IMG/VR virus record: IMGVR_UViG_2703718834_000005
Coordinates: 1-27,493 of that record
DNA: 27,493 nucleotides
From: a virus
Taxonomy: Duplodnaviria; Heunggongvirae; Uroviricota; Caudoviricetes
Strand: one strand, 5' to 3'
The notes under the pieces are model-generated. The model was not told where the DNA came from. It saw nothing but the letters and a program-made list of their open reading frames with translations, and did no database searches. The translations under genes and the position numbers were made by a program. Shown in pieces: positions 8,608 through 17,097 of this stretch; the stretch's first letter is position 1; the number at the start of each line of letters is the position of its first letter.

Positions 8608-10020
8608 TTACCAACCGGAGGATGAGGGAACGTATATTTCTGTTTCTTCGCGGACCAATGCCGGGCAATGCATACACATCATCAGCGCATCAGCCAGGTT
8701 AGGAGATGGAATACCGAGCTTCTGCTTCATTTCGACCTTAGTCATAAGCTCCAGCTTCCCGTTATTATTGAATTTGCGCTGAATCTGCGTCAGTTCTGCA
8801 AACAGCTTCTCCAGCATCTTCTCGCCTATCGCTTCTTTATCGAAGCTCAGCATGTCGTCGGGGTCTGCATACTCACCGTGAACAACCGCCCGATATGTCA
8901 GATACAGCCTGTCAGCCAGCGCGTAATAGAATTGCGCTCGCTTATTGCGGAATACATCGCCAATAGTGCGAACGTTGTCGCCCTGTACGACTTCATCAGC
9001 CCACGCTCCGGCCTGATACGGAGCATCTTCATCGAATGGCGATTCGCTGCCCTTGAACATCGTAGCGGTGATTTTCTTGCCGGAGAACGCTTCCGTTGTC
9101 TGTCTGCGTAGCCCGGCACCAACACCATCACCATCCCACAGGTAGTGGTCAGCGCCGTCTTCAATCGCCAGCGAGGTAGCCCAGTCAGCACCCTCGTTGA
9201 TGTCCATCAGCAGACCTTCGGCAATGCGCTTAACCACCGAACCGTGACGCGATGCATAACCTTTAGCATCCGGCCCTGTATCTGATGGGTCATGCGCAGA
9301 GACAACAGCGCCTTTCGCTTTCCATCCGAGTTTCTTGTGCGCATCGGTTGCGGATTCAAGCCATTCACGTTTGATGATTGCCATATCACTTGCGCTTACT
9401 GGCTCACCAAGCCAGATGTGACGATACAGTGTCGGATTTCTACGTTTACACTCTTCCATCTCCAGACGGAGAACTTCAGGAAAGTGCGGATTGTCGGTGT
9501 AGTTCACTGTCAGCAGACAAATATCATCAGGAGGGTTTACGACGAATCGCTGATAGGTATCGTCGAGGATGTTTTTCGGGTTGAAGCTCACCCATATTTC
9601 GGAAAACGGCTTGCGGATGGTTGGTATCAGGATGTCCCATGATTCCTTCGTTACCGCTTCCGCTTCTTCCACCCAGCAGATATCAATGCCTTCGAGCGAT
9701 TTAATCTTCGTCGGGTTGTTTTTGATGCCGTAGAACATGAATTCAGCATTCGTTCCGAGATGACGAATCATTGAACGCTGAATTTCAAACTCAGCCGAAT
9801 ACCCTTCCCGCTCTATGGTGTCTTCAAGCAACCGGATTACCGAATCGCTGATACTGTTTTGCAGTTCACGAGCGCAGAGAATACGCACAGGCTGCCGGCG
9901 CGCCGCCTCAACAAGCAGCCTCGCAATTGCCCATGATTTACCGCTACCTCGACCGCCTTTGGCGACTTTGTAGCGATGCGCCTCAATGAACGGTTCAAAG
10001 ATAGGATTAATCGAGGTCAT
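8608..10020 (-). CDS. terminase large subunit
   Basis: 470 aa; Walker A KGGRGSGKS near N-terminus; overlaps small terminase stop. Confidence 0.95.
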   Translation of the reverse strand: MTSINPIFEPFIEAHRYKVAKGGRGSGKSWAIARLLVEAARRQPVRILCARELQNSISDSVIRLLEDTIEREGYSAEFEIQRSMIRHLGTNAEFMFYGIKNNPTKIKSLEGIDICWVEEAEAVTKESWDILIPTIRKPFSEIWVSFNPKNILDDTYQRFVVNPPDDICLLTVNYTDNPHFPEVLRLEMEECKRRNPTLYRHIWLGEPVSASDMAIIKREWLESATDAHKKLGWKAKGAVVSAHDPSDTGPDAKGYASRHGSVVKRIAEGLLMDINEGADWATSLAIEDGADHYLWDGDGVGAGLRRQTTEAFSGKKITATMFKGSESPFDEDAPYQAGAWADEVVQGDNVRTIGDVFRNKRAQFYYALADRLYLTYRAVVHGEYADPDDMLSFDKEAIGEKMLEKLFAELTQIQRKFNNNGKLELMTKVEMKQKLGIPSPNLADALMMCMHCPALVREETEIYVPSSSGW

Positions 10021-10442
10021 TTTCCGAATAGAGTGCTCATCGGTGATGTTTCAATCTGAATTGCGCCGCCGTCTTTGCCGACAAGTTCATTAGTTACCTT
10101 GTCGCCATACTTACGGGGATTCATTCTGGCCAGCGCCCATTTGCGGGTATCAACGCGAAGTCTTGCCTTTGCCACCTCGGCGGCATCAGGGATTACGTCG
10201 TCAGCAATTTCGAATATCTCTTCGAAAATAGAGTCGGCCCGAGTCTCTGTTGCCTTCGCGTACTGGTCACGAAACTCCTGATGTTCAGCCAGCCAGCGAA
10301 AAACTGATGTTTTGCTCGGCATTCCTGGGCGTTCGCAAACTTTGCGCAGACTCTCACCGGAGGAAAGCAATGCGCAAATGTCATTAGCCACCTCCGGCAT
10401 ATAATCAGAGGGGCGACCACCTTTCTTTTTCTCAGTCGCCAT
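10017..10442 (-). CDS. terminase small subunit (Sf6 gp1-like)
   Basis: 141 aa; sequence (GRPSDYMPEVA..I..LLSSGESL.KVC.RPGMP....VFRWL) matches recalled Sf6 small terminase nearly throughout. Confidence 0.9.
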   Translation of the reverse strand: MATEKKKGGRPSDYMPEVANDICALLSSGESLRKVCERPGMPSKTSVFRWLAEHQEFRDQYAKATETRADSIFEEIFEIADDVIPDAAEVAKARLRVDTRKWALARMNPRKYGDKVTNELVGKDGGAIQIETSPMSTLFGK

Positions 10443-10521
10443 ATTGATTATTTCCCTTCTGCTTGCTTATCCCATTCATCGCGGAATTTGGATGGGTTGT
10501 CGAAACCTTGAGTTGCCATGT

Positions 10522-10764
10522 TTACGCTCCCGTAGTGAACAGGTCTAACGCTTCCTTCGATTTACGCACCGCTTCGATAGTGCGGGTCGTGATATCTGAA
10601 TTAGCGCCGCCTGACTGGAAGTGAATTTTGAATAGCTCAAGCTTCAGCTCGTCAGTGCCAATGAATTGAAATGCTTCTTCTGCGGCTGCGTTCTGGTTCA
10701 TGACCAGTTTATAAATCTCTAACTGGAATTTCTGTTCTTCAGTCATGGGAATAATCTCTGCCAT
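10522..10764 (-). CDS. hypothetical protein (80 aa)
   Basis: ORF with ATG start; no recognised motif. Confidence 0.45.
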   Translation of the reverse strand: MAEIIPMTEEQKFQLEIYKLVMNQNAAAEEAFQFIGTDELKLELFKIHFQSGGANSDITTRTIEAVRKSKEALDLFTTGA

Positions 10765-10833
10765 TGTTGGCTCCGTTTATCCGTTAAAAGGGATATCAGT
10801 TAAGTTATCCCGTGTAGGGTATAAGCCATTGTC

Positions 10834-10856
10834 GAGACCACTCATTGAATGGTCTC
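10834..10856. promoter_or_regulatory. inverted repeat (7-bp arms, 9-nt spacer) in 296-bp noncoding gap upstream of the 80-aa gene
   Basis: GAGACCA-ctcattgaa-TGGTCTC read directly. Confidence 0.3.
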
Positions 10857-11060
10857 TGCAATAACCGATGTCTTTCCATCAGTCCGCCACCACAAAGAAT
10901 CTTTTTTTGCCATAAGGCAGGAGGTTCATCTTTCAGTGGCTGCCAGTGTTATTTCCCCACTTACTGGCTTGGGTTGTTTCGTGGTACTGCCGTTAACTGG
11001 TGGCCCAGAATAAATTCCGGTTTCATTATCAAGCCCACCCGTAAATGGGCTTTGTAATGG

Positions 11061-11324
11061 CTACTTCACTTTTGCTTTTGCTTCCGCTCGCTTACGCCGG
11101 CGCTCTTCTTTCCTCTCGGCTTTTGCCATGTCCATGAATGCCTGCATGATCGAGTTCCGCATCATGTAGCTAACAAAGTGATGATTGACACAGCCGTTGA
11201 GGCGCAGCTGCTCGCCAAACTCATCCACCGAGGCCAATGCTTCCATCATGCCCTTCTCGCCTTTCATGAACTCTGAGAAGTCGCGCCCCGCTCTGGAGGC
11301 GCATTCAATGACACGATCACTCAT
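11061..11324 (-). CDS. hypothetical protein (87 aa) with Lys/Arg/Glu-rich C-terminus
   Basis: ATGA start/stop overlap with upstream KilA-N gene. Confidence 0.5.
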   Translation of the reverse strand: MSDRVIECASRAGRDFSEFMKGEKGMMEALASVDEFGEQLRLNGCVNHHFVSYMMRNSIMQAFMDMAKAERKEERRRKRAEAKAKVK

Positions 11325-11818
11325 CCCGGAAGCCCGGGGATCGTAATCTGCAGCTGGTTAGCCAGGGAGTTAATCTCAGCGACCAACACTGGCTTCGTAT
11401 AGCGCCATGCTGCCAGCCCTTGTCCGCAGAAGCTCGCCATGTCTTTCTTCTGGTCAAACTCATGACATTTCATGTTGAGCTGCGCACTTAAGCTGTTGCG
11501 ATGCTGAAGTTCTCCGGTGAAGTAGTCATCGAGGACTTTATAGGCCGCGTACTTGAACCCGGGGTTTAACCAAGCCGCATAATCGTAAGCAACAAACTTC
11601 CCGCCATATGTTCCACCGTGTACACCGCGCTCAGTAAAAACCACAGATTCGTGGTTTTTCTCCAGCTCGGCTAAGAACTCTTTGGTCTGCTTGTTTCGCA
11701 GATAGTGGTACGGCGATTCAGATTCACTTTTACCACTAGCTTTCCACATGTCAGTGAGGCAGATCATGCCATCTTCACCGATACGAATTGGTTGATTGAA
11801 GAGGGTTAATGATTTCAT
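11321..11818 (-). CDS. KilA-N domain protein (putative DNA-binding)
   Basis: 165 aa; resemblance to recalled KilA-N/APSES-type N-terminal domain; assignment by pattern only. Confidence 0.45.
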   Translation of the reverse strand: MKSLTLFNQPIRIGEDGMICLTDMWKASGKSESESPYHYLRNKQTKEFLAELEKNHESVVFTERGVHGGTYGGKFVAYDYAAWLNPGFKYAAYKVLDDYFTGELQHRNSLSAQLNMKCHEFDQKKDMASFCGQGLAAWRYTKPVLVAEINSLANQLQITIPGLPG

Positions 11819-11933
11819 AGCGTGTACCTACTCTTTGAAATGAACCTTTGCCGCACAGGAAACCAGCCCACCGAGGCTCGCCAGCACTAACTGGTATCCT
11901 CAAAGGCCCATTCCAAAGGGGCAGGTTCGGTGT

Positions 11934-11958
11934 AAAAAACATGCGTTGCGGTACGCAT
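11934..11958 (-). terminator. intrinsic terminator downstream of lysis cassette (distal)
   Basis: minus-strand AUGCGU-ACCGCA-ACGCAU then G UUUUUU. Confidence 0.55.
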
Positions 11959-11965
11959 TTATTGC

Positions 11966-11987
11966 AAAAAGCCCCGCATCGCGAGGC
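11966..11987 (-). terminator. intrinsic terminator downstream of Rz (proximal)
   Basis: minus-strand GCCUCGC-GAU-GCGGGGC (one G-U pair) followed by UUUUU. Confidence 0.5.
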
Positions 11988-12019
11988 TCATTAAATGGAC
12001 TTTGTGATTTGCAAAAAAA

Positions 12020-12478
12020 TTATTTCAGGCATTGCGTCCTGATGTATTCCTGCAGGTAGTTAACCTGCGCGGTTATCTTGTCGATTCCACTTCGGAGACG
12101 GTAATAATTGAGTTCAGCATCTGCTGTAAGTCCTGGGCTTTCTCCATCGCCCATGCCGCTGGCTCCGGTCGTTGACTTTGCACAGGTGGCGGCGACTTGC
12201 AGGCGCTTACGCCCAGCAGAAACATCAGCACGGAGACTTTCGATAGTCGCGTTAGCATCAGCAAGCTCCTTTGTGTATCTTGCGTCGAGTTCTGCTACAT
12301 CACGTTGACGCTTCCGCATGTCAGCGATGGTGGCGTTCGCCTTCTCCAGTTCACTGGCCTTGTTATCGCGCTGCTCTTTGTAGGCGATTGCGTTATCACG
12401 GTAATGATTAACAGCCCATGACAGGCAGACGATGATGCAGATAATCAGAGCGGGGATAATCGCGGTTACTCTGCTCAT
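12020..12478 (-). CDS. Rz: i-spanin Rz
   Basis: 152 aa; N-terminal TM segment then coiled coil; near-identical to recalled lambda Rz; ATGA overlap with R. Confidence 0.9.
12073..12264 (-). CDS. Rz1: o-spanin Rz1, lipoprotein embedded in the +1 frame of Rz
   Basis: 63 aa; signal peptide with lipobox (LGVSAC), proline-rich mature part ([12 protein letters not shown]); entirely inside Rz. Confidence 0.8.
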
Positions 12479-12951
12479 ACCTCAATCTCTCTGACCGTTC
12501 CGCCCGCTTCTTTGAATTTTGCAATCAGGCTGTCAGCCTTATGCTCGAACTGACCATAACCAGCGCCCGGCAGTGAAGCCCAGATATTGCTGCAACGGTC
12601 GATAGCCTGACGAATATCACCGCGATCAATCATCGGTAAAGCGCCACGCTCTTTAATCTGTTGCAGTGCCACAGCGTCCTGGCTTTTCGGAGAGAAGTCT
12701 TTCAGGCCAAGCTGCTTACGATAGGCATCCCACCAACGGGAAAGAAGCTGGTAACGTCCGGCTGCTGTTGATTTGAGTTTTGGGTTTAGCGTGACAAGTT
12801 TGCGAGGGTGATCGGAGTAATCAGTGAATAGCTCTCCGCCAACAATGACGTCATAACCATGATTTCTGGTTTTCTGCCGTCCGTTATCAGTTCCCTCTGA
12901 CCACGCCAGCATATCGAGGAACGCCTTACGTTGATTATTGATTTCCACCAT
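12475..12951 (-). CDS. R: endolysin R (lytic transglycosylase, lambda R family)
   Basis: 158 aa; near-identical to recalled lambda R. Confidence 0.95.
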
Positions 12952-13258
12952 CTTCTACTCCGGCTTTTTTAGCAGCGAAGCGTTTGATAAGCGAACCAAT
13001 CGAGTCAGTACCGATGTAGCCGATGAACACGCTCGTTATATAAGCGAGATTGCTACTTAATCCGGCGAAGTCGAGAAGGTCACGAATGAACCAGGCGATA
13101 ATGGCGCACATCGTTGCGTCGATTACTGTTTTTGTAAACGCACCGCCATTATACCTGCCGCGAAGGTACGCCATTGCAAACGCAAGGATTGCCCCGATGC
13201 CTTGTTCCTTTGCCGCGAGAATGGCGGCTAACAGGTCATGTTTTTCTGGCATCTTCAT
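12935..13258 (-). CDS. S: holin S (class I, dual-start S107/S105)
   Basis: 107 aa beginning MKMPEK (two Met starts separated by Lys); three hydrophobic segments; overlaps R start. Confidence 0.95.
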
Positions 13259-13264
13259 GTCTTA

Positions 13265-13278
13265 CCCCCAGAAGGGGA
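13265..13278 (-). promoter_or_regulatory. sdi-like RNA hairpin upstream of S start (controls S107/S105 start choice)
   Basis: minus-strand CCCC-UUCU-GGGG(G) immediately before UAAGAC-AUG-AAG-AUG, as in lambda S. Confidence 0.5.
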
Positions 13279-13420
13279 TCTGTTCAAATTAGGAATTATG
13301 GATATGGTCGCTTGAACAAATCCGGGTTACGGTTTATTTGTAACGGGCTTGTTCGTGACCGCATTCATGAGCAAATCAGGCGTGGATTGCGCCAACAATA
13401 CATGCCGCTCATATCACGAA

Positions 13421-13450
13421 GCCCAGCCATTGATGCTGGGTTTTCTTTTT
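13421..13450 (+). terminator. plus-strand intrinsic terminator inside the late-operon leader
   Basis: GCCCAGC-cattgat-GCTGGG followed by TTTTCTTTTTT. Confidence 0.5.
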
Positions 13451-13529
13451 TAAAGCGCACTAGACAACCGTATCCACAGAGTGTCAGCAATGAGTTGGTT
13501 AGGTCTGGTTCTTGGTGGAAGTACGCTTT

Positions 13530-13555
13530 AAAAAATGGGCTGAGGGTTGTAGCCC
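13530..13555 (-). terminator. minus-strand intrinsic terminator inside the late-operon leader
   Basis: minus-strand GGGCU-acaacccuc-AGCCC followed by AUUUUUU. Confidence 0.45.
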
Positions 13556-13784
13556 AAAATACTGAGGGAATGGTATGGATGAACAACGGTTTTGCTCTGG
13601 GTGGATTTGGCTGTGGTGGCCGGCGCTGATCTCCGGCTTGTATACAGGCACCTTGTTCTTCCGAAGCTCTCCTGCGCGCATCAGCCTGCGCATTCACCAC
13701 ACCGGAAAGAGCACTCAGTTGTACCGGCCAGTTGTGCCACTAAGAAATGCTTTCGCAGACCGTTAAGCTCTTTGCCAGTTCTTT

Positions 13785-13800
13785 AATGCTCTTACCTGTT
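13785..13800. repeat. 16-bp direct repeat copy 1 (AATGCTCTTACCTGTT)
   Basis: exact 16-mer also present at 14036..14051. Confidence 0.9.
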
Positions 13801-13972
13801 GTGTGCCCATTATTAATCACACCGGGCCAGTGCGCCGAATTTGTTTACAAGGAGTCGGAAGACCTTGCTGACTTACAGGCTATTACGCCGCCATCAGAAC
13901 AACATCATCGTTTGCATTTATCTTTGTGGTCAGTTTCTAAAAAACCGCAAAGTCGCCAACTCTGACGAAAAC

Positions 13973-13996
13973 TATCGTTGTGCTGCCACAACGATA
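13973..13996. other. perfect 10-bp-stem hairpin (TATCGTTGTG-ctgc-CACAACGATA) inside the repeat-bounded segment
   Basis: read directly; on the minus strand it is followed by GUUUUCG. Confidence 0.8.
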
Positions 13997-14035
13997 AGAG
14001 CACTCGGTGCATTTAAGCCAAGCCCCATAAGGGAG

Positions 14036-14051
14036 AATGCTCTTACCTGTT
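14036..14051. repeat. 16-bp direct repeat copy 2 (AATGCTCTTACCTGTT), abutting tR'
   Basis: exact match to 13785..13800; 251 bp apart. Confidence 0.9.
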
Positions 14052-14061
14052 ACACAGATAT

Positions 14062-14120
14062 AAAAAATCCCGAAACCGTTATGCAGGCTCTAACTATTAC
14101 CTGCGAACTGTTTCGGGATT
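14062..14120 (-). terminator. tR' late terminator
   Basis: minus-strand AAUCCCGAAAC ... GUUUCGGGAUU followed by UUUUUA; matches recalled lambda tR' (GGTTTCGGGATTTTTTATATCTG). Confidence 0.7.
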
Positions 14121-14254
14121 GCATTTTACAGACCTCTCATCCTGCGATGGTTGGAGTTCCAGACGATACGTCGAAGTGACCAACTAGGCGGAATCGGTAG
14201 TAAGCGCCGCCTCTTTTTATCTCACTACCACAACGAGCGAATTAACCCATCGTT
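14062..14254 (-). ncRNA. 6S-like short late leader RNA (pR' start to tR')
   Basis: about 193 nt between predicted pR' start and tR', as for lambda 6S RNA (about 194 nt); sequence resembles recalled lambda pR' leader. Confidence 0.55.
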
Positions 14255-14289
14255 GGGTCAAATTTACCCAACTTTATTCAAAAAGTCAA
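14255..14289 (-). promoter_or_regulatory. late promoter pR' with Q-utilisation region
   Basis: minus-strand TTGACT (-35), 17-bp spacer, TAAATT (-10), about 40 bp downstream of Q stop. Confidence 0.65.
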
Positions 14290-14331
14290 TATCATGCCGT
14301 TAATATGTTGCCATCCGTGGCAATCATGCTG

Positions 14332-14955
14332 CTAACGTGTGACCGCGTTCAAAATGTTGTCTGCGATTGACTCTTCCTTGTGGCATTGCACCACCAGAGC
14401 GTCATACAGCGGCTTAACAGTTCGTGACCAGGTGGGTTGGGTAAGGTTTGGGATTAGCATCGTTACAGCGCGATATGCGGCGCTTGCTGGCATTCTTGAA
14501 TAGCCGACACCTTTGCATCTTCCGCATTCTTTCTCAACAACTCTCCCCCACAGCTCTGTTTTTGATATATCAACCGCACGGCCTGTACCGTGGCAATCTC
14601 TGCATCTTGCACCCGGCGTCGCGGCACTACGGCAATAATCCGCATAAGCGAATGTTGCGAGCACTTGCAGTACCTTTGCCTTAGTATTTCCTTCGAGCTT
14701 TGCCACACCACGGTATTTCCCCGATACCTTGTGTGCAAATTGCATCAGATAGTTGATAGCCTTTTGTTTGTCGTTCTGGCTGAGTTCGTGCTTACCGCAG
14801 AATGCAGCCATACCGAATCCGGCTTGTGATTGCGCCATCCCCATAGCAGCCATCACATCAGTACCGGAAAGAGAGTCAGAAGCCGTAGCCCGTGGTGAGT
14901 CGCTCATCATCGGGCTTTTTGGCGAATGAAATTTAGCTACGTTTTCGAGTCTCAT
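14332..14955 (-). CDS. Q: late antiterminator Q (lambda Q family)
   Basis: 207 aa; near-identical to recalled lambda Q including the Cys-rich zinc motif CRDCHGTGR...CGRCKGVG. Confidence 0.95.
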
Positions 14956-15617
14956 GCGCCTTCTCCCTGTACCTGAATCAATGTGAGATTTCCGCAGAAC
15001 ACTGCGCCGGTATCGATATACATCTGGTTGGCAAATTTGAGCGGTTTCACTGCTGGCGTATGACCAAAGATGAACGTGTCCGCGCCTTTAATTTCTTTCA
15101 CGATCCCGTCTTGTGAGTTGCTGATTCGTTCGCGGTTCCAGATTACCTGCTGATGATCAACTGGCTTTCCAAACTCGTATTCGTCACAAGGATAATCGGC
15201 GTGGCAGATGACATATTTTTTATCTTTACTCACCAGTTCGATGATTAACGGAAGTTCATCTGCTTTATGGGCAAGAGCTTTAGCCAGAATTTCTTTGTCG
15301 TAATCGAGATTAAAGAACCAACTACCGCCATTAAGCAGCCAGTGATTGACGTTTCCGCGCTCTGATAAGCCATCAATCATCATTTGCTCATGGTTTCCAC
15401 GTACAGCTCTGAACCAGGGGAATGTGATTAATTCCAGGCATTCAACGTTCTCTGTACCGCGATCGACCAAATCGCCAACCGAGATAAGCAGGTCTTTTTT
15501 GGTGTCGAATCCTATCGCCTCCAGTTTTTTCATCAGGTTCGTGTAGCATCCGTGCAGATCGCCAACTACCCAAATATTTCGGTATTTGCTGCCATCAATT
15601 TTTTCGTAATAGCGCAT
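14952..15617 (-). CDS. Ser/Thr protein phosphatase (lambda PPase / NinI)
   Basis: 221 aa from ATG at 15617 (the track start at 15626 is GTG); metallophosphatase motifs GDLHG, GDLVDRG, GNHE; ATGA overlap with Q. Confidence 0.9.
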
Positions 15618-15801
15618 CTCTTTCACTCCATCCGCGATGAACCATGAGAACGTCGTTGACTATGGCGTGCATTTTCCCGTCTTTATCATCAACGTATTTT
15701 CTGACCGTACCGCGACTACATTTCAGTCTGCGTGCTACTTCTGTCTGGTTTCCGTATGCTTCAACAAGCATGTCTGGAATGGTTTTTACTGAGAACGTCA
15801 T
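15595..15801 (-). CDS. ninH: NinH
   Basis: 68 aa, matches recalled lambda NinH; ATGA overlap with ninG. Confidence 0.8.
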
Positions 15802-16403
15802 GCGGCCTCACTTCTGCTGTTTCGCAGTTTTTTAAGTTTCTGTTGATACTCCGCCTTGATGGTCTTGCACTCTTCGACAGTCCAGCGATGGCGGTTATGG
15901 TTTGATTCGATTTCGTCTACTGCTTCCTGCCCGATGCGGTTAATCAGTTCGACGCGATACGGAACGAGATTTCCGCTTTTATGTTGGTTGCACACCACGC
16001 ATTGCTTGTGAATATTGCGTTCATCAAATCGGAGTTGAGGTGCCGCAGCAGTTGTCCGGTAATGCCCGGCATCCCACTGAGCAGACGTGAGCGTTCCGCA
16101 CGAGATACATGGTAAGTCGCGGTCTCTTTCTCTGATGAAGGCGTTTACGGTTTGTTGGGCTTGTTTAATCCAGTAACTGCGGGGCTTTAAGGCGAGTTTT
16201 CGAATCTTCAGTTTATCTTTCTGTCTCTGCTCCTCTCGTCGTCGTTTCTTCTCTGCTGCTTTTTCCGCTTTTTTTCGCTGTTTACTTTGTAGTTTGAGTG
16301 CTAACTGAGTTCCGTGTTCCGGGCAGCACCACCACTGATTTGAGAATGCCGGGTGAAACCATTCCTTGCATATTTTGCATTTCCTTCGCGCTGGTTTAGC
16401 CAT
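15798..16403 (-). CDS. ninG: NinG (Rap recombination-associated endonuclease)
   Basis: 201 aa; Cys-rich N-terminus and central KR-rich segment as in lambda NinG. Confidence 0.85.
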
Positions 16404-16572
16404 CGTCTTCTTCCTCGTACATTGAGCTATTCGGATCGCTCATCAGTTCTGCGCAGCAATCGGAGCACACGTGAACTTCCAGCACATGCAGCTTCTGACC
16501 GCAGTTAGCGCACGTTAAAGCCCGCTCGACGCTTTCTTTCTGGTATTGAAGAGATTGGGATGGGCTAAGCAT
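16396..16572 (-). CDS. ninF: NinF (58 aa), not in ORF track
   Basis: translated by hand: [58 protein letters not shown]; stop overlaps ninG start; matches recalled lambda NinF. Confidence 0.75.
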
Positions 16573-16924
16573 TATTGACGTCCTGCATCATGAGAAAGAC
16601 AATCATGGCGGCGCGGAGGGAATTTTCATGTATAGCTCGCTTAGATTTACAGTCGGCCGCACCACGTGCCCCCCACTCGTCTTCATCGAGATTGATAATG
16701 CTAATCCTGTACTTCTCAATAATCGGCCATGAGGCACTCGGATCATTGCAGTAGTCAGGTAAAGGGTTTAATGGCTCAAAAGTTGTATCAGCATTTCCGT
16801 AATACCATTTGTTGGTGTTATTCCCTGACGTTTCCGGTTTACATGCCCAAAGGCCTTTAAAAATTATGTCTCCTACCATTCTGTTAATTTCAAAATCACT
16901 TAACTGTGAATAATCCATTGTCAT
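16565..16924 (-). CDS. hypothetical nin-region protein (119 aa)
   Basis: ATGA overlap with ninE stop; tightly packed in nin operon. Confidence 0.6.
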
Positions 16925-17097
16925 TTCCTCGCACGTTCTCTAAGCCACCGGATATCCCACAGGTGAGCCGTGTAGTTGAAGGTTTTTACGTCAGATTCTT
17001 TTGGGATTGGCTTGCGTTTATTTCTGGAGCGCTTCGTTGGAAGGTATTTGCAGTTTTCGCAGATGATGTCGGTGATACTTCGTCGCTGTCGTCTCAT
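16921..17097 (-). CDS. ninE: NinE (58 aa)
   Basis: internal ATG at 17097 gives [23 protein letters not shown]..., matching recalled lambda NinE; ATGA overlap with Dam stop; the track ORF extends upstream in an overlapping frame. Confidence 0.75.

Follow-up and report, generated by a model that had tools for sequence, protein, structure and literature searches.

Facing terminator-like elements joined by a covarying helix form a conserved module upstream of the holin gene in lambdoid and P22-like phages

Results

The late operon and its leader

The window, by which we mean the whole 27,493-nt stretch of viral DNA analysed here (IMG/VR record IMGVR_UViG_2703718834_000005), carries the late genes of a lambda-like prophage on its minus strand, with Q followed by S and then by R and Rz. 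Four features define the late-operon setting:

14955..14332, minus strand: Q, late gene
14261..14289, minus strand: late promoter pR' (TTGACT, 17-nt spacer, TAAATT)
14060..14120, minus strand: lambda-type tR', the first late-strand terminator and the end of a 6S-type RNA, placed by alignment with lambda
12935..13258, minus strand: S, holin gene of lambda S type, 107 aa

Alignment shows that pR', qut, the 6S region and the tR' hairpin (−26.9 kcal/mol, z = −6.0) are conserved between the window and lambda. The holin-proximal 170 nt of the leader are also homologous to lambda, and the window departs from lambda 3' of tR'; the gap between Q and S measures 1073 bp in the window versus 677 bp in lambda. 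Roughly 500 bp past tR' match HK620 and HK633 at 99%, and the 541-bp leader of the window occurs in 108 of 5426 complete E. coli genomes, with annotation in none of them. The leader stretch between tR' and the module described below contains another structured element, which is widespread and separate from that module.

A tRNA scan of the window found no tRNA gene, and an Rfam search of the whole window returned 0 matches at the gathering threshold. Under a permissive Rfam scan the isrJ model (RF01393) scored 16 bits at 13370-13444 on the plus strand, below its gathering threshold of 37 bits; this match comes from the terminator hairpin alone, and in PS119 the same model matches tR' on the opposite strand, so that isrJ was set aside.

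A plus-strand terminator-like unit, T1

One 150-bp module (13409-13559) recurs as a single conserved non-coding unit of the lysis-cassette leader in many lambdoid and P22-like phages. The first-pass annotation had described a plus-strand and a minus-strand terminator that face each other between tR' (14120..14060) and S, and both are present there, with the ends of their T-tracts 78 bp apart:

13418..13451, plus strand: T1, an intrinsic-terminator-like unit antisense to the late operon, with a 10-bp stem, a 7-nt loop and the tail UUUUCUUUUUU
13530..13556, minus strand: T2, a weak intrinsic terminator (UGGGCU, 9-nt loop, AGCCCA, U6), the same as the 'tQ' of HK620

T1 was the top terminator-like site in a scan of positions 10000-17000. 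Its stem arms, GAAGCCCAGC and GCUGGGUUUU, occupy 13418-13427 and 13435-13444, and its tail occupies 13441-13451. The hairpin is stable and G+C-rich (minimum free energy −14.4 kcal/mol, z = −4.0), none of 200 shuffles folds equally well, and a U-rich tract lies directly 3' of the stem. Read on the plus strand, the stem reaches 10 bp through G.U and A-U pairs and is followed by 10 U in 11 nt; read on the late strand, the hairpin is followed only by CUUCGUGAUAU. The same scan yielded 16 terminator-like sites in 7 kb where 7.9 ± 3.0 were expected; such sites are therefore common in the region, and two close together are unremarkable in themselves. What lifts the T1/T2 pair above chance, as judged by sequence comparison, is its conservation across phages.

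By BLAST, T1 is found in P22, epsilon34, ES18, PS119/ST104, HK97, HK022, HK544, mEpX1/2 and HK620. The late-strand pattern AAGAAAACCCAGC-N4-9-GCTGGGMTTCGTG retrieves 107 IMG/VR loci, and T1 is also present in species representatives of Erwinia, Kluyvera, Atlantibacter and Citrobacter; at the Erwinia dacicola and Atlantibacter loci it precedes a different holin. None of the phage records examined, HK620 included, annotates T1. The loop is free to vary, with over 10 variants of 5-7 nt, the stem is retained, and two compensatory double deletions keep the stem paired (CCCGC/GCGGG and CCAGC/GCTGG). Because loops of 5, 6 and 7 nt and the compensatory changes break any reading frame, we rejected small-ORF readings of the element, namely plus-strand ORFs of 34 and 63 aa and the late-strand ORFs annotated as eps34 gp63 and MG40_063.

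The tract behaves differently from a helix arm. Its sequence varies (AAAAGAAAA, AAATAAAAAA, AAATGAAAAA), always A-rich on the late strand and T-rich on the plus strand, and it does not covary with a would-be helix partner. Retention of the A-tract through pairing with UUUCU of the opposite arm of the helix P1 (described below) was considered and rejected, as that pairing is not kept at loci L132 and L218.

T1 is not universal. In a leader sample free of selection for T1, anchored on the holin-proximal blocks, about half of the leaders are of lambda type and lack it. Comparison of P22 with lambda places the difference precisely: P22 carries AAAGAAAACCCAGAACTATGGCTGGGC between the shared flanks TTTTACACA and TTCGTGAA, where lambda carries TGACC, and this indel removes exactly the tract and the hairpin. 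The part missing from lambda and from the Salmonella prophage BTP1 is likewise exactly the hairpin-plus-tract unit. An indel that matches a complete terminator unit is, to our minds, the best sequence-level argument that T1 is selected as a plus-strand terminator, and T1 would probably act as one in vivo.

A probable late-strand terminator, T2

The T2 stem, UGGGCU/AGCCCA, occupies 13556..13551 and 13541..13536, and its U6 tract occupies 13535..13530, so that the late strand carries, ~700 nt past pR', a hairpin followed by a U tract. The minimum free energy of T2 is −8.4 kcal/mol (z = −2.45), which 5 of 200 shuffles equal or surpass. Our terminator scan was limited to loops of ≤8 nt, and the 9-nt loop is the sole reason that it missed T2.

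The GenBank record of HK620 (AF335538) labels an identical sequence 'late transcription terminator; tQ', at the same place, 272 bp upstream of S, within 541 bp that are 99.4% identical to the window; T1 and P1 are unannotated in that record. The earlier remark that neither terminator is explained by the annotated genes is not supported, as T2 is annotated in HK620. The HK620 record takes tQ as the late terminator, and both the window and HK620 have a tR'-type terminator nearer to pR'.

In relatives, three other unrelated hairpins, each followed by T6, occupy the T2 position, which is immediately 5' (in the late-strand sense) of a conserved AAAGCG block. The replacement stems include GCCAGC..GCTGGC and GCCCG..CGGGC, as in GCCAGCATCGCCGCTGGC and GCCCGTACCCTCGGGC, and in P22-type leaders the phage's own tR' occupies this position. 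One T2 variant retains its stem by a U.G pair that is valid on the late strand only. Unrelated hairpins thus replace one another here with the function kept, and we take T2 to be genuine, if weak, as a terminator of the late strand; together with the HK620 annotation, this supports the proposal that the minus-strand hairpin would stop transcripts not modified by Q. Since tR' is much nearer to pR' in the window and in HK620, T2 would form a second barrier, not the primary one. Most likely it is a backup terminator behind the lambda-type tR', and we expect from its sequence that it would terminate transcription in vivo.

A covarying helix between the T-tracts

The interval between T1 and T2, given in the first-pass annotation as about 80 bp, is not empty space and contains an inverted repeat whose arms extend into both terminators:

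13446..13461, unstranded: P1 arm adjoining T1 (TTTTTTAAAGCGCACT), overlapping the T1 T-tract; inverted repeat I1
13520..13535, unstranded: P1 arm adjoining T2 (AGTACGCTTTAAAAAA), overlapping the T2 T-tract
13462..13519, unstranded: P1 interior, with conserved CACCAA..ACCAGA and CTGTGGCTACGG blocks (late-strand reading) and an inner helix, P1b

The arms (repeat I1) are 16 nt long, are 94% complementary and take in both T-tracts. RNAalifold, run on a MAFFT alignment, did not recover P1, since the register of the arms shifts from one sequence family to the next, and pair counts from our alignment A3 are unusable for the same reason; we therefore compared the duplex energies of cognate and non-cognate arms instead. 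Across ten sequence families the arms differ in sequence and keep their complementarity, as in the pairs AAAGCGTACT/AGTGCGCTTT, TTAGCGCTTATC/GATAAGCGCTAA, AGCACTCTA/TAGAGTGCT, GCGCACCCACC/GGTGGGTGCGC and AAAATGCCCT/AGGGCATTTT. The mean duplex energy over these 10 families is −21.2 kcal/mol for cognate arms versus −13.7 kcal/mol for non-cognate arms, and in 8 of the 10 the cognate partner is better than every non-cognate arm. Within the interior, P1b (13474-13476 / 13506-13508) changes from CCA/UGG to CCG/CGG in 12 of 72 sequences of alignment A3. On this comparative evidence, the supposed spacer forms a helix, P1, which covaries and extends by its arms into both T-tracts.

Among 35 variants the P1 duplex comprises 14-21 pairs at −19 to −29 kcal/mol, and in the late transcript it gives a near-continuous helix of ~20 bp, the kind of substrate that RNase III-type processing calls for. 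The strand on which P1 acts is ambiguous: the late strand gives the better helix in 22 of the 35 variants, and G.U pairs number 43 on the late strand and 38 on the plus strand, with no strand preference. We also considered whether lambda carries an inverted version of the P1 interior (CCGTAGCCAC versus GTGGCTACGG) and dropped the idea, as the matches were 7-10-mers only, at chance level.

The near parity of G.U use is the pattern expected from homogenisation at the DNA level, and it is an argument for regarding the module as functionless, a relic of a mosaic junction whose inverted repeat is kept by template-switch (quasipalindrome) DNA correction and not by selection. The left edge of the module (CACGAC) is moreover a recombination boundary to many different upstream sequences, and lambda and BTP1 function without T1. 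Against this stand the persistence of the module in P22-like, HK97-like and HK620-like phages and in four further enterobacterial genera, and the contrast between flanks that are ~70% identical and a T1 stem, tract and inner P1 blocks that are nearly invariant. Further, the sole locus with a decayed P1 (L156) has a decayed T1 too. We consider a functionless module very unlikely, and the earlier suggestion that the terminators are relics of a former insert does not fit a unit that is conserved, with covariation, in many phages.

Late-mRNA helices between T1 and S

Downstream of T1 on the late strand, the leader folds into further helices:

13352..13420, minus strand: helix H_a, in which UUCGUGA (13420..13414) pairs with UCACGAA (13358..13352) and encloses a further hairpin
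13276..13323, minus strand: hairpin H_b (repeat I5), with arms GGAUUUGUUCAA and UUGAACAGAUCC, just upstream of the ribosome-binding structure of S

The H_a arm UUCGUGA lies directly 3' of the T1 complement on the late strand, and the loop of H_b bears a conserved UUCCUAAU. The helices between T1 and S are thus UUCGUGA/UCACGAA, the one that this pair encloses, and GGAUUUGUUC/GAACAAAUCC. Across 122 distinct leaders, H_a, H_b and the enclosed helix together contain 503 G.U versus 3 A.C cells when read on the late strand, which identifies them as late-mRNA structures; by this measure they belong unambiguously to the late mRNA.

This overwhelming late-strand selection bears on T1 itself, which might work only as a late-strand RNA hairpin within a string composed of P1, the T1 complement, H_a, H_b and the ribosome-binding stem of S. 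The lysis mRNA would then owe its folding, its stability or its processing by RNase III or RNase E to these hairpins. A cut in the A-rich linker, for instance, would leave the T1-complement hairpin as a protective 5' stem-loop, and the likeness to a plus-strand terminator would be incidental. In keeping with such a role, the T1 complement abuts the 3' arm of P1 and the 5' arm of H_a with no linkers, a decayed T1 variant (L189) keeps its stem by a U.G pair valid on the late strand only, and RNase III sites have been attributed to the lambda late transcript (Daniels et al., 1988, as cited in PMC7547250). Scans of the window and seven relatives also found no strong plus-strand promoter. However, the lambda/P22 indel takes out the hairpin together with the T-tract and not the hairpin alone, the tract remains A/T-rich without a covarying partner, and it is the plus-strand version that has the longer stem and a near-ideal U-tract. 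In addition, BTP1 has an antisense leader RNA (PMC6333337). We regard a role confined to the late mRNA, the main alternative to a plus-strand terminator, as possible though rather unlikely.

An antisense leader RNA in BTP1 and a candidate promoter in the window

A plus-strand terminator at this position calls for a plus-strand transcript, and a relative offers a precedent. Prophage BTP1 of Salmonella D23580 encodes an annotated non-coding RNA, STnc6010, on the minus strand at 386640-386959, a length of 320 nt (S2 Table, PMC6333337; Canals et al., 2019). It lies between Q_BTP1 (plus strand, 386021-386539) and the holin gene (plus strand, from 387004) (S2 Table, PMC6333337). Over 17 conditions its abundance ranges from 8 to 362 TPM versus 3-15 TPM for Q (PMC7067206; Owen et al., 2020). 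Northern blots confirmed four BTP1 sRNAs, and STnc6010 is not among them (PMC6333337); nor is it mentioned in the main texts of the literature searched.

When mapped on the BTP1 genome (LT714109), STnc6010 begins, as annotated, at the second A of TTAGGAAT, 45 nt before the holin ATG, and runs antisense into two tRNA genes. The TTAGGAAT motif is conserved in the window, where it lies in the loop of H_b, and the equivalent base is 13295. This position suggests two features:

13261..13295, plus strand: candidate antisense promoter (−35 CTTACC at 13261-13266, −10 TCAAAT at 13284-13289, predicted start A13295)
13295..13451, plus strand: predicted antisense leader RNA of ~155 nt ending at T1, proposed from BTP1, T1 and the promoter-like site

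The candidate promoter (CTTACC-17-TCAAAT) has a −10 element without the critical −11 A. Scored only at the homologous position, it reaches 4.6 bits in the window, compared with 5.4 in P22, 5.5 in BTP1, 6.1 in lambda/HK97 and 7.8 in PS119; at this site the position-restricted scores have a mean of 5.7 bits, whereas the shuffled null stands at 0.5 ± 3.1 (95th percentile 5.6). In the window and in seven relatives, an open sigma-70 scan of the 370 plus-strand nt that precede T1 found nothing that beats the best shuffled site. Of the hallmarks of an antisense RNA, the window thus presents a terminator and complementarity to an mRNA, along with a promoter-like site that is weak at 4.6 bits. The candidate promoter may nevertheless be active in the window.

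T1 was expected in BTP1 and is absent; the BTP1 leader is of lambda type. By analogy, T1-bearing leaders may make a transcript of the STnc6010 type but end it after ~155 nt. Because BTP1 itself lacks T1, we only infer this link between T1 and an STnc6010-type RNA. The proposal of a plus-strand antisense transcript that starts near S is supported in principle: STnc6010 and the conservation of T1 speak for it, and against it the promoter search gave nothing above chance and the homologous site scores low. Coverage of the S start by such an RNA finds no support, as the predicted transcript leads away from S and leaves the ribosome-binding site of S uncovered.

T1 could also be a real plus-strand terminator that halts longer antisense transcripts begun farther downstream, in the lysis or structural region, with no dedicated small RNA. 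Candidate sources are a promoter-like site at 12418-12445, at the R/Rz junction, and accessory genes of opposite orientation, which are common past the lysis cassette of lambdoid phages (lambda bor is an example). The best promoter-like plus-strand sites upstream of T1 are indeed ATGACA-16-GATAAT (10 of 12 matches) and TTAACA-17-GATGAT, at 12408-12445. Yet promoter-like sites occur in the region scanned at chance frequency (8 found versus 8.3 expected), and the site in R/Rz is 1 kb away from T1. Further, T1 is retained where the endolysin and Rz genes are unrelated and even where the holin differs, which implies that a promoter inside R/Rz is not its conserved partner. We give little credence to this origin of the transcripts that T1 would end.

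Discussion

A proposed two-sided insulator before the holin gene

We propose, with moderate confidence, that the module is a two-sided insulator before the holin gene, in which T2 backs up tR', T1 ends antisense transcription and P1 forms in read-through RNA. The proposal starts from direct observations: the structures, their conservation and covariation, the boundaries of the indel and an antisense leader RNA in a relative. Under this proposal T2 would be a second barrier after tR' for pR' transcripts made without Q, a barrier that would keep leaky transcription from the holin gene, and Q-modified polymerase would read through it. T1 would be a strong Rho-independent terminator that ends antisense transcription from the holin-proximal leader. 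Such transcription would start at ~13295, 37 nt upstream of the S ATG, at the homologue of the STnc6010 5' end; its product of ~155 nt would be complementary to the structured S leader, and T1 would keep antisense transcription out of the upstream leader and pR'. The predicted antisense RNA might affect holin expression.

P1, a covarying helix of 16-21 bp, has both T/A-tracts as its outer base pairs, and it would fold in read-through RNA only. Its role there may be that of a processing or insulating hairpin, for instance an RNase III site as in the lambda late leader. Processing of the lambda late transcript by RNase III is documented (Daniels et al., 1988, Virology 167:568; cited as reference 49 in PMC7547250), and the sites concerned make an RNase III role for P1 a reasonable guess; the lambda sites may, by analogy, correspond to the hairpins of the window. 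Points against the insulator are the weakness of T2 (6 bp, 9-nt loop) and the fact that lambda manages without T1. The sole experimental precedent, BTP1, moreover has a lambda-type leader without T1.

A bolder version of the insulator, which we think doubtful, makes T2-P1-T1 a two-way holin insulator in which the ~155-nt antisense RNA acts in lysogens. Leader RNA that leaks past tR' and T2 would be paired by the T1-terminated antisense RNA, and RNase III would cut the duplex as well as P1 in read-through RNA of either strand. Were this true, the holin of P22, HK97, HK022 and HK620 would be an antisense-guarded toxin resembling those of type I toxin-antitoxin systems, and lambda would have lost the terminator.

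Comparison with known systems

The lambda pR'-tR' (6S RNA) leader resembles that of the window in pR', qut, 6S, tR' and the holin-proximal 170 nt, and it too has long hairpins after tR'; unlike the window, it has no T1, T2 or P1. STnc6010 of BTP1 resembles the RNA predicted for the window in being antisense to the late leader and in having its 5' end in the shared TTAGGAAT motif, but it extends over its full annotated length with no obvious terminator, whereas the window version would end at T1.

OOP acts together with RNase III. OOP/cII and aQ/Q of lambda are precedents for short antisense RNAs to phage mRNAs that end at an intrinsic terminator (reviewed in PMC12197685), although their targets are cII and Q, not the lysis leader, and their promoters are experimentally defined. 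Antisense RNAs of lambdoid phages are in general a known kind, which includes OOP, aQ, sar, sas, STnc6030 and STnc6010. The hok/sok systems (for example hokW-sokW of prophage Sp5; PMC8621323) combine a small membrane-damaging protein, a structured mRNA leader and a short RNA antisense to that leader. The holin, by contrast, is a phage lysis gene under Q antitermination and not a stand-alone addiction module, and the likeness is an analogy only.

T2 was already known as an annotation, the tQ of HK620. From our comparisons, the new points are that T1 can be recognised as a conserved terminator unit, one that lambda lacks, and that a covarying helix ties it to the late-strand terminator; the link of T1 to an STnc6010-type transcript is a further, proposed novelty.

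Implications for lysogeny and lysis

Premature holin expression kills a lysogen, and safeguards in the late leader therefore bear on prophage stability and on the timing of lysis. Should T1 be no more than a hairpin of the late mRNA, the leaders would still stand out as densely structured RNAs, and annotation of a terminator should await 3'-end data. If the insulator proposal is correct, P22, HK97, HK022 and HK620 would gain a regulatory layer made up of a conserved terminator for antisense transcription, a helix that covaries and perhaps a short antisense RNA. The lambda paradigm has no such layer, as T1 is absent from lambda. The STnc6010-type transcript would, on the same condition, acquire a function and a defined 3' end.

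Cargo in the late leader

The late leader, the non-coding late-strand stretch between Q and the holin gene, is a cargo site from tR', the lambda-type first late terminator, to its holin-proximal part. This site carries tRNA-Asn and tRNA-Thr in the Salmonella prophage BTP1 (L230 36889-37041) and in mEp506, a tRNA-like sequence in SI5 (L006 1535-1604; 23.9 bits), and a structured element in the window and in HK620.

Features of the window:
13612-13805, late strand: structured non-coding element, also found in loci L003, L004, L005 and L231-L341
13972-13997, minus (late) strand: third terminator-like hairpin, with an 11-bp stem TTATCGTTGTG/CACAACGATAG followed by TTTTCGTC
13575-13766, plus strand: ORF of 63 aa whose N-terminus is hydrophobic, with GAGGGA as a Shine-Dalgarno-like sequence
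12408-12445, plus strand: pair of promoter-like sites that overlap each other and are oriented antisense to the R/Rz junction

The structured element begins with a long hairpin (arms ACAGGTAAGAGCATT / AGTGCTCTTTCCG), which is followed by a domain with the closing stem GTTGTGGTG...CCACCACAAC. Inside this domain are a pair of conserved hairpins, GCGCAGGCTGATGCGC and GCCGGAGATCAGCACCGGC, and an insert that varies from 0 to 65 nt. In lambda, the analogous domain lies directly after tR' and has a closing stem that differs from that of the window. A 26-nt core of the element is present in more than 119 viral contigs, and virulent phages that are unrelated (swi2, SopranoGao, CWW26, N4-like IME11 and Vi01-like) have blocks of 40-104 nt with 94-99% identity to it between their genes. 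The element may be an RNA element that is mobile or is exchanged widely; alternatively, it may correspond to the part of late leaders in which the RNase III sites lie. A search of Rfam returned no match for the element at 13612-13805. Separately, its variable part in Escherichia phage vB_Eco_CWW26 (L005 1323-1369, minus strand) gives a match of 38 bits (E = 4.6e-8) to the Rfam model for microsporidian SSU rRNA, at model positions 172-218.

Because the arms of the long hairpin occur twice (14036-14051 and 13785-13800; 13986-14008 and 13697-13719), the window holds two copies of the lambda-type hairpin, at 14051..13986 and 13805..13697. The third terminator-like hairpin directly adjoins the end of the first copy and is found in the window only, the HK620 sequence being different there. 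A 16-18-nt repeat, ACAACAGGTAAGAGCATT, lies at the exact point at which the window diverges from lambda; this site resembles a junction created by recombination between modules.

On the plus strand, the 63-aa ORF runs through the point in the structured element at which the variable insert lies and is thus unlikely to be a gene; its candidacy as a type I toxin was rejected. The promoter-like sites (ATGACA-16-GATAAT, with 10/12 matches, and TTAACA-17-GATGAT) could drive a long antisense transcript over R and S, and the number of such sites in the surrounding region is at chance level.

The leader and T1 in relatives

In P22 (L117, BK000583 ~38.05 kb), a C-to-A change (CCCAGAACTATGGCTGGG) removes one base pair from the stem of T1, the plus-strand terminator-like hairpin upstream of S, and T1 may therefore be weakened in this phage. 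In Erwinia dacicola and Atlantibacter subterraneus (L342, L344), the same leader, comprising the covarying helix P1, T1, the late-mRNA helices H_a and H_b, and a stem-loop covering the ribosome-binding site, stands upstream of another kind of holin gene (MKNMADKVTTAAAYT...). The leader is therefore not tied to one holin family: it moves, or is retained, independently.
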